From NCBI RefSeq assembly GCF_058153355.1, contig NZ_CM177019.1: a stretch of 64,000 nt of DNA; one strand, written 5' to 3'. The notes under the pieces are model-generated. The model searched no databases, was not told the origin of the DNA, and saw only the letters and a list, made by a program, of their open reading frames with translations. Shown one piece after another: positions 22,218 to 22,993 of the stretch (positions are counted from its first letter, which is position 1; every line of letters starts with the position of its first letter). Made by a program: the position numbers and the translations under genes.

Positions 22218-22331
22218 CTTTGTTACATATGAACTTTGCCGATTTTCATATGACATGGCAATCCAACGCTTTGATTATTCTAAAGAAAACACATGCTCTT
22301 GGGCGTTCTTTAGTGATTTTTAAAAATCCCG

Positions 22332-22430
22332 TATCACGCAGTTAAAATGGCGGGCATACTCTTCCAGGCTGGTTATCCCCAGACGGATCCATTTAGGATG
22401 CGACCATTGCGGCAGACCGATGTAAATCAT
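22332..22430 (-). pseudogene. yecE: 5' fragment of yecE-like (DUF72) gene truncated by prophage insertion
   Basis: ATG overlaps the yecD stop (ATGA); encodes [32 protein letters not shown], then the frame ends after 4 more codons. Confidence 0.5.
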
Positions 22431-22993
22431 AATGCGTTGAGGATCTCTTCCACACTGCGCACACGGGCGATGCGTGGGTAGATATGGTTGATGCTGTTAT
22501 TGTGCTGCTCGGCGCTGGCGGCGCTGCAGGCGTCTTCGGCAATCACCAGATTAAAACCGAGTTCCCAGGCATTGCGGGCGGTGGATTCAACACCGATATT
22601 GGTCGAGATCCCACATAATACTATTGTATCGATACCCCGGCGGCGTAATTGCAACTCCAGATCCGTACCGTAAAACGCACCCCATTGACGTTTGATGATT
22701 TCGATATCGCTGTCGGTTGCACCTAATGCAGCAGGATGTTGCCACCAGTTTTCGGGTAACACTTTAGCGGGGGAGGGGGCATCAACCGGCTGTTTTAATG
22801 CTTCGGCATAATCGGCAGACCAGCCAACGCGCACCAGAAACACGGGCTGACCGTTCGCGCGAAATTTCGCCGCCAGCTTCCCTGTCCGATTAACCACCTC
22901 ATCGGCAGTATGCGGGCCACCGGCAAAAGGTAAGATGCCTTTTTGTAAGTCAATTACCACCAGCGCAGTGGTTTTAGCATTCAGTTCAAGCAT
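22427..22993 (-). CDS. yecD: isochorismatase-family hydrolase YecD
   Basis: 188-aa product with isochorismatase-like motifs; expected position next to aspS. Confidence 0.85.

Follow-up and report, generated by a model that had tools for sequence, protein, structure and literature searches.

The initial annotation of the locus described here named yecE as a recognised integration site of lambdoid phages, and this is documented for Stx-converting phages, for which yecE is among the classical insertion sites and potC a later addition (PMC9751135, PMC8065619, PMC8705337). One occupant of yecE is the Stx2e phage phiP27 (AJ298298.1), whose record annotates the 11-bp core CACGCAGTTAA both as attL (1-11) and as attR (42565-42575), and whose insertion is of the type that leaves a 36-codon YecE stub. 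Among its genes are stx2e and a head-tail module of the HK97/P27 type; the genome closes at the right end with L56-L58, and neither dinI nor ipaH is found there. Integrases of the phiP27 type adjoin the yecE 3' part in relatives. Temperate Stx lambdoid phages such as vB_EcoS_ULI-O80_Stx2d and Stx2_12E129_yecE use the same yecE target between yecD and yecN, but their cargo is stx rather than ipaH and their integrases, on which the comparison was made, are about 76% identical to the phiP27 type.

Two further elements, the 40.5-kb prophage of E. coli KE40 and the phage PhiR49_2 (PV340570.1), share the DinI gene and the P' arm with the present locus at 96.8-97.5% identity; unlike it, they are complete (about 41 kb), have a P27-family terminase and head genes of the HK97 type, and lack ipaH. 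The KE40 prophage is bordered on both sides by yecE sequence, and its junctions have the core TTAACTG(C/T)GTG. At its far end are the genes of an excisionase and a 437-aa tyrosine integrase, and the 3' end of the integrase gene passes into the 256 codons that remain of yecE, beyond which come yecN and cmoA. The record of PhiR49_2, which has been cut at att, shows Int and Xis at one terminus and the arm with DinI at the opposite one. At the attL of KE40 (40759-41529) and of the enteroinvasive E. coli (EIEC) strain CFSAN029787 (38541-39311) the annotation pipeline has called a 256-aa 'DUF72' ORF, which would encode a phage-yecE hybrid, opens within the integrase 3' end with a non-canonical start codon and whose translation begins IKISKL. 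The ipaHd-carrying yecE prophages of EIEC (CFSAN029787, O121 201805972, VL40 and six others) have a lambda-like tail set, partly pseudogenised, as the present element does. Among the 5426 complete E. coli genomes surveyed, the int/yecE 3' junction was found in 500 and the combination of dinI, P' arm and core in 237, and the whole 3-kb yecD-yecE'-dinI-ipaHd block, 99.4-99.5% identical to that studied here, was present in nine, all of which (9/9) also have an ipaH9.8-bearing plasmid. Both the integration system of phiP27 in yecE and the ipaH-carrying junction are thus already known, the latter in sequenced EIEC genomes.

In the window, i.e., the whole stretch of 64,000 nucleotides that was analysed, the chromosomal flank of the junction is an intact yecD on the minus strand (22427-22993), encoding a 188-aa isochorismatase-family hydrolase with matches to Pfam Isochorismatase (PF00857) and NCBIfam PRK11440. 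Directly 3' of it lies a minus-strand ORF of 36 codons (22320-22430), and the bases 22427-22430, tcat, read ATGA on the minus strand, the same overlap of the yecD stop and the yecE start as in K-12. The initial annotation had described this ORF, its ATGA overlap and its termination after four unrelated codons at the phage-side edge, and our analysis bears this out: the ORF encodes residues 1-32 of YecE (31/32 identical to K-12, with V15I; tblastn E = 5.9e-17), followed by IRDF and a TAA at 22320-22322, which are read out of phage DNA. The N-terminal YecE match was also recognised there, but its length had been given as 33 residues and has to be corrected to 32. A match of this kind is far beyond chance. 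The K-12 DNA from aspS through yecD to nt 96 of yecE aligned with the window over 991 bases at 95.4% identity, and the alignment ended exactly at 22335, which places the boundary of yecE homology at 22335/22334; this comparison with an intact yecE, suggested as a check in the initial annotation, covers codons 1-32. The intact K-12 YecE is a DUF72 protein that matches PRK10302 over residues 1-272, whereas the stub, with 32 native residues left of the approximately 272 of a full-length YecE/DUF72 protein, had no Pfam match. The function of YecE is presumably lost, since the insertion divides its first 32 residues from the rest of the protein. Blastn and tblastn searches of the window with K-12 yecE matched residues 1-32 only and found no yecE 3' part; the window opens within the lysis genes of the prophage, and both the end with the integrase and the 3' part of yecE fall outside it. 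A partial yecE pseudogene is annotated at the equivalent place in KE40, CFSAN029787 and O121 201805972.

The last bases common to yecE are those of the phiP27 att core. The 11-bp sequence CACGCAGTTAA at 22335-22345 is identical to both annotated cores of phiP27 and also occurs at the attL and attR of CFSAN029787; in the orientation of yecE it reads TTAACTGCGTG and falls in codons 29-32. The shared core TTAACTGCGTG was obtained from the attB of K-12, the attR of the window, KE40 and CFSAN029787 and the attL of KE40 and CFSAN029787, the KE40 attL being the C/T variant. Next to the core, the P' arm of attR (22149-22334) consists of 186 bases with ungapped homology to the right arm of phiP27, and core and arm together show 154 identities over 197 bases (78%), with G-rich repeats at matching positions. 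These repeats are TGGGGCA at 22159, 22170, 22190 and 22200 and TGGGACA at 22211, and they are putative arm-type binding sites of the integrase. Across the whole window TGGGGCA is not enriched (9 matches versus 11 expected), and the one meaningful feature is the local clustering of four copies within 48 bases, which is conserved in phiP27. Arm and dinI share 97.5% identity with their counterparts in the KE40 prophage and 96.8% with those in PhiR49_2. In CFSAN029787 the attR arm matches at 100%, and the integrase adjoining the yecE 3' part there is 96.8% identical to the Int of phiP27 and 97.9% to that of PhiR49_2. Core identity, arm homology and linkage to a phiP27-type Int in relatives together identify the window segment 22149-22345 as a phiP27-type attR. 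With the break on the phiP27 core and an arm of about 190 bases homologous to those of phiP27, PhiR49_2 and the KE40 prophage, the proposal of the initial annotation that a prophage is inserted in yecE is well supported. The annotation should be amended in two respects, in that the 36-codon ORF is a remnant of yecE and the bases 22149-22345 are a phage attachment site and not a gene.

At its right end the prophage closes with a DinI-like gene on the minus strand (21824-22072; Pfam PF06183), which is placed equivalently in KE40, CFSAN029787 and PhiR49_2. Just upstream of it, at 22088-22131, there are two LexA-box-like palindromes, inverted repeats of the form CTGT-N8-ACAG, and the window contains five matches to this motif versus 0.64 expected; the dinI homologue would be under LexA control. 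A further palindrome of this form, at 45631-45646, lies just upstream of the ORF adjoining purT, a position held in K-12 by the SOS gene yebG. The 392-aa ORF at 44354-45532 had been considered as an integrase and was rejected, being purT according to Pfam.

Between the tail fibre genes and dinI lies ipaH (19472-21223, minus strand), which encodes a 583-aa type III effector with an LRR and a NEL E3 ubiquitin ligase domain. The gene is intact: its product matches Pfam LRR_TTSS and NEL, scores 563.9 bits against NCBIfam IpaH_Shig (cut-off 550), matches PDB 5kh1 over the full length, and has the N-terminal LRR and C-terminal NEL of a full-length IpaH family member. A protein search found no record with the exact IpaH of the window. 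Its homologue is annotated as ipaHd in EIEC genomes and would, in the light of a comparative study of Shigella genomes, be of the IpaH1880 type. A MxiE-box-like sequence, GTATCGTTTTTTTACAT (21419-21435, minus strand), precedes the ipaH start by about 196 bases; it has one mismatch to the MxiE box consensus GTATCGTTTTTTTANAG and is the sole match in the window, where 0.04 would be expected. Expression of ipaH is probably MxiE-dependent, and the box suggests that a chromosomal effector gene may be wired to a plasmid-encoded regulator of type III secretion.

To the left of this cargo, the element is a defective remnant. Its lambda-like tail genes, from Z and the tail tube through the tape measure up to J, occupy 2260-13562 on the plus strand (ORF list, Pfam), with the tape measure split into 708 and 276 aa (6844-6959) and J into 948 and 167 aa (13011-13059). 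They are followed on the same strand by Lom (13629-14228; ORF list, Pfam), a tail fibre of 815 aa (14287-16734) with a Tfa-like assembly protein (16737-17282), and a second tail-fibre N-terminal gene of 470 aa (17306-18718) with a DUF4376 gene (18675-19292). Two tail-fibre modules therefore stand in tandem at 14287-19292, and the EIEC homologues have the second module only. A deletion scar at 1966-2260 joins the lysis/DUF4406 region straight to the head-tail joining and gpZ genes: window 703-1966 corresponds to 26336-27599 of the CFSAN029787 prophage region and window 2260-8284 to 38976-45000, and approximately 11 kb with the terminase, portal and capsid genes are missing relative to that homologue. 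The element does not have the intact head, tail and packaging set of a complete inducible lambdoid prophage; it should no longer be able to form particles, and the remnant is presumably immobile. Its lambda-like tail genes, its ipaH cargo and its defective state set it apart from phiP27, and it is mosaic, in that the late genes at the junction are lambda-like, in contrast to the HK97/P27-like head-tail set in KE40, PhiR49_2 and phiP27; the tail-tip genes of PhiR49_2 and KE40 are 90-93% identical to those of the window. It differs from the ipaHd prophages of EIEC by its own 11-kb head-gene deletion and by the extra tail-fibre module; in the tail genes it shows 96-99% identity with the CFSAN029787 prophage.

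At the left edge of the window are further late-region genes on the plus strand, a 209-aa ORF, lysozyme and Rz (39-1731), and the prophage runs on leftward past the edge. The 209-aa protein at the window start is present in hundreds of unrelated prophages, and a 64-mer from the window start was absent from the GTDB representative genomes. IMG/VR gave 12 matches, of which the best, a near-identical contig, ends at window position 1643 and adds upstream only a holin, IS66 and Q; comparison of the early region of this contig with the two CFSAN029787 prophages did not distinguish the linked integrase. A 45-mer of the P' arm occurred in one small IMG/VR contig only.

The chromosomal backbone of the window belongs to a different, rarer lineage than that of the EIEC genomes. 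The segment 22427-32100 is unusual in its identity to K-12 (yecD 94.4%, aspS 96.9%, yebB 82.6%), and the best complete E. coli genome over 23000-32000 is N96, from a Tibetan pig, at 99.1%; this match spans a copy annotated as IS621 (about 30.9-32.0 kb) that is absent in most genomes. No complete genome exceeded 96.8% identity over the segment from yecD to the arm. The exact YecD of the window was confined to four draft contigs, none longer than 10 kb, and the three that were read break at or before ipaH. Two ORFs without family match (312 and 201 aa) are located between yebB and ruvA (27318-28989), an interval that in K-12 holds yobI only; the draft contigs from this lineage have them too. Beyond copD a second lambdoid prophage starts (53436-64000). 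Its minus-strand genes include a tyrosine integrase (53436-54512), a RecE-like exonuclease VIII (58014-59942), Rha (60635-61483) and a DicA-like repressor (63227-63733), and an IS110-family transposase gene (56575-57750) interrupts it.

We consider it very probable that a phiP27-type lambdoid phage integrated in yecE, leaving the attR at 22149-22345, and later decayed. Site-specific recombination of attP with attB within the 11-bp core, catalysed by a 437-aa tyrosine integrase, would have placed the phage in codons 29-32 of yecE. The insertion would have left the 36-codon stub, 32 native codons plus IRDF, which still overlaps the yecD stop, and would have shifted the remaining part of yecE to the end that holds the integrase. 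As right-end cargo the phage would have brought ipaH with its MxiE-type box and the DinI-like gene with its LexA-type boxes, and later decay, in which the head genes were deleted and the tape measure and J were split, would have turned it into a fixed, defective ipaH island. The historical insertion in yecE is secure, and an integrase of the phiP27 type probably acted in the source genome too.

One alternative concerns the integrase. Other yecE-associated integrases form a second class, which shares about 76% identity with the phiP27 enzyme and occurs in phages named for yecE, e.g., Stx2_12E129_yecE and PPyecE_EH1910, and the source genome's own integrase lies beyond the window. Integration by an enzyme of this class is nevertheless unlikely, as the window arm is about 97% identical to the arms of KE40 and PhiR49_2, which are linked to an Int 97-98% identical to that of phiP27, and also aligns with phiP27's own arm, in a comparison that took in the second class by its integrase only. 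Still harder to credit is that yecE was cut by an unrelated deletion or IS event with phage DNA adjoining by accident, or that the match of the ORF to YecE arose by chance. IS elements and deletions are present in the region, but no IS end is found at the junction, the break matches the phiP27 att core to the base and the same junction recurs in 237 genomes, while the tblastn value given above and the syntenic flanking yecD and aspS speak against a chance match.

The possibility that the present prophage is a chimera is of another kind, since it would modify the insertion in yecE and is compatible with it. Homologous recombination with another lambdoid prophage, through late regions that are near-identical in the two, would have joined the yecE end to the integrase end of that prophage at a different site, which would put the yecE 3' part at a distance of hundreds of kilobases. 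The far end of the element was walked in three complete EIEC genomes with the yecD-yecE'-DinI-ipaH block, and the yecE 3' part was found there in one of them and another att site in the other two. EIEC O121 201805972 is collinear, with yecE 5' and a yecE 3' remnant plus yecN 50.6 kb apart and an IS1-riddled prophage between them that has lost its integrase. In CFSAN029787, yecE 5' borders a prophage whose other end is at potC and carries a 372-aa lambda-type integrase, and a second prophage leads from potB to a P27-type Xis-Int and yecE 3'-yecN, about 0.82 Mb away; this arrangement is an inversion, the two prophages having recombined through late regions that are near-identical. In VL40 the prophage next to yecE 5' extends to ttcA, where it has IntR/XisR, and large rearrangements between near-identical lambdoid prophages appear common at the yecE locus of EIEC. 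Because the prophages end at potC or ttcA in two of these three genomes, a far end lacking the yecE 3' part would be compatible with an original insertion in yecE, and the search for that part at the other prophage end, suggested in the initial annotation, could come out negative for a real insertion. The potC- and ttcA-ended prophages and the high identity of the window tail genes to those of CFSAN029787 point to a chimera, whereas O121 201805972 is collinear over its 50.6 kb and has between the yecE halves those early genes which in CFSAN029787 are found linked to the P27-type Int; the window itself shows no sign of inversion and is collinear with K-12 from yecD to purT and beyond. On balance we regard a chimeric prophage as a serious possibility, though short of a probable one. 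Somewhat more speculative is the combined proposal that large inversions between prophages of enteroinvasive Escherichia recurrently break at the yecE attR/ipaH end, that the prophage of the window, in its apparently rare lineage, is chimeric with its yecE 3' part far off, and that phiP27-type integration was the acquisition route of the IpaH1880/IpaHd-type gene.

The mechanism of chromosomal insertion of IpaH1880 was called 'uncertain' in a comparative study of Shigella genomes. The anatomy of the att site provides a straightforward mechanism for the IpaH1880-type block, which is a modest clarification, the equation of the window gene with IpaH1880 being a candidate only. A single att junction is insufficient to define where a prophage begins and ends in a Shigella-like genome, since lambdoid late regions are near-identical and recombination between them carries the two parts of the target gene away from each other. 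The chromosomal ipaH beside yecD can be explained as cargo of a phiP27-type temperate phage.
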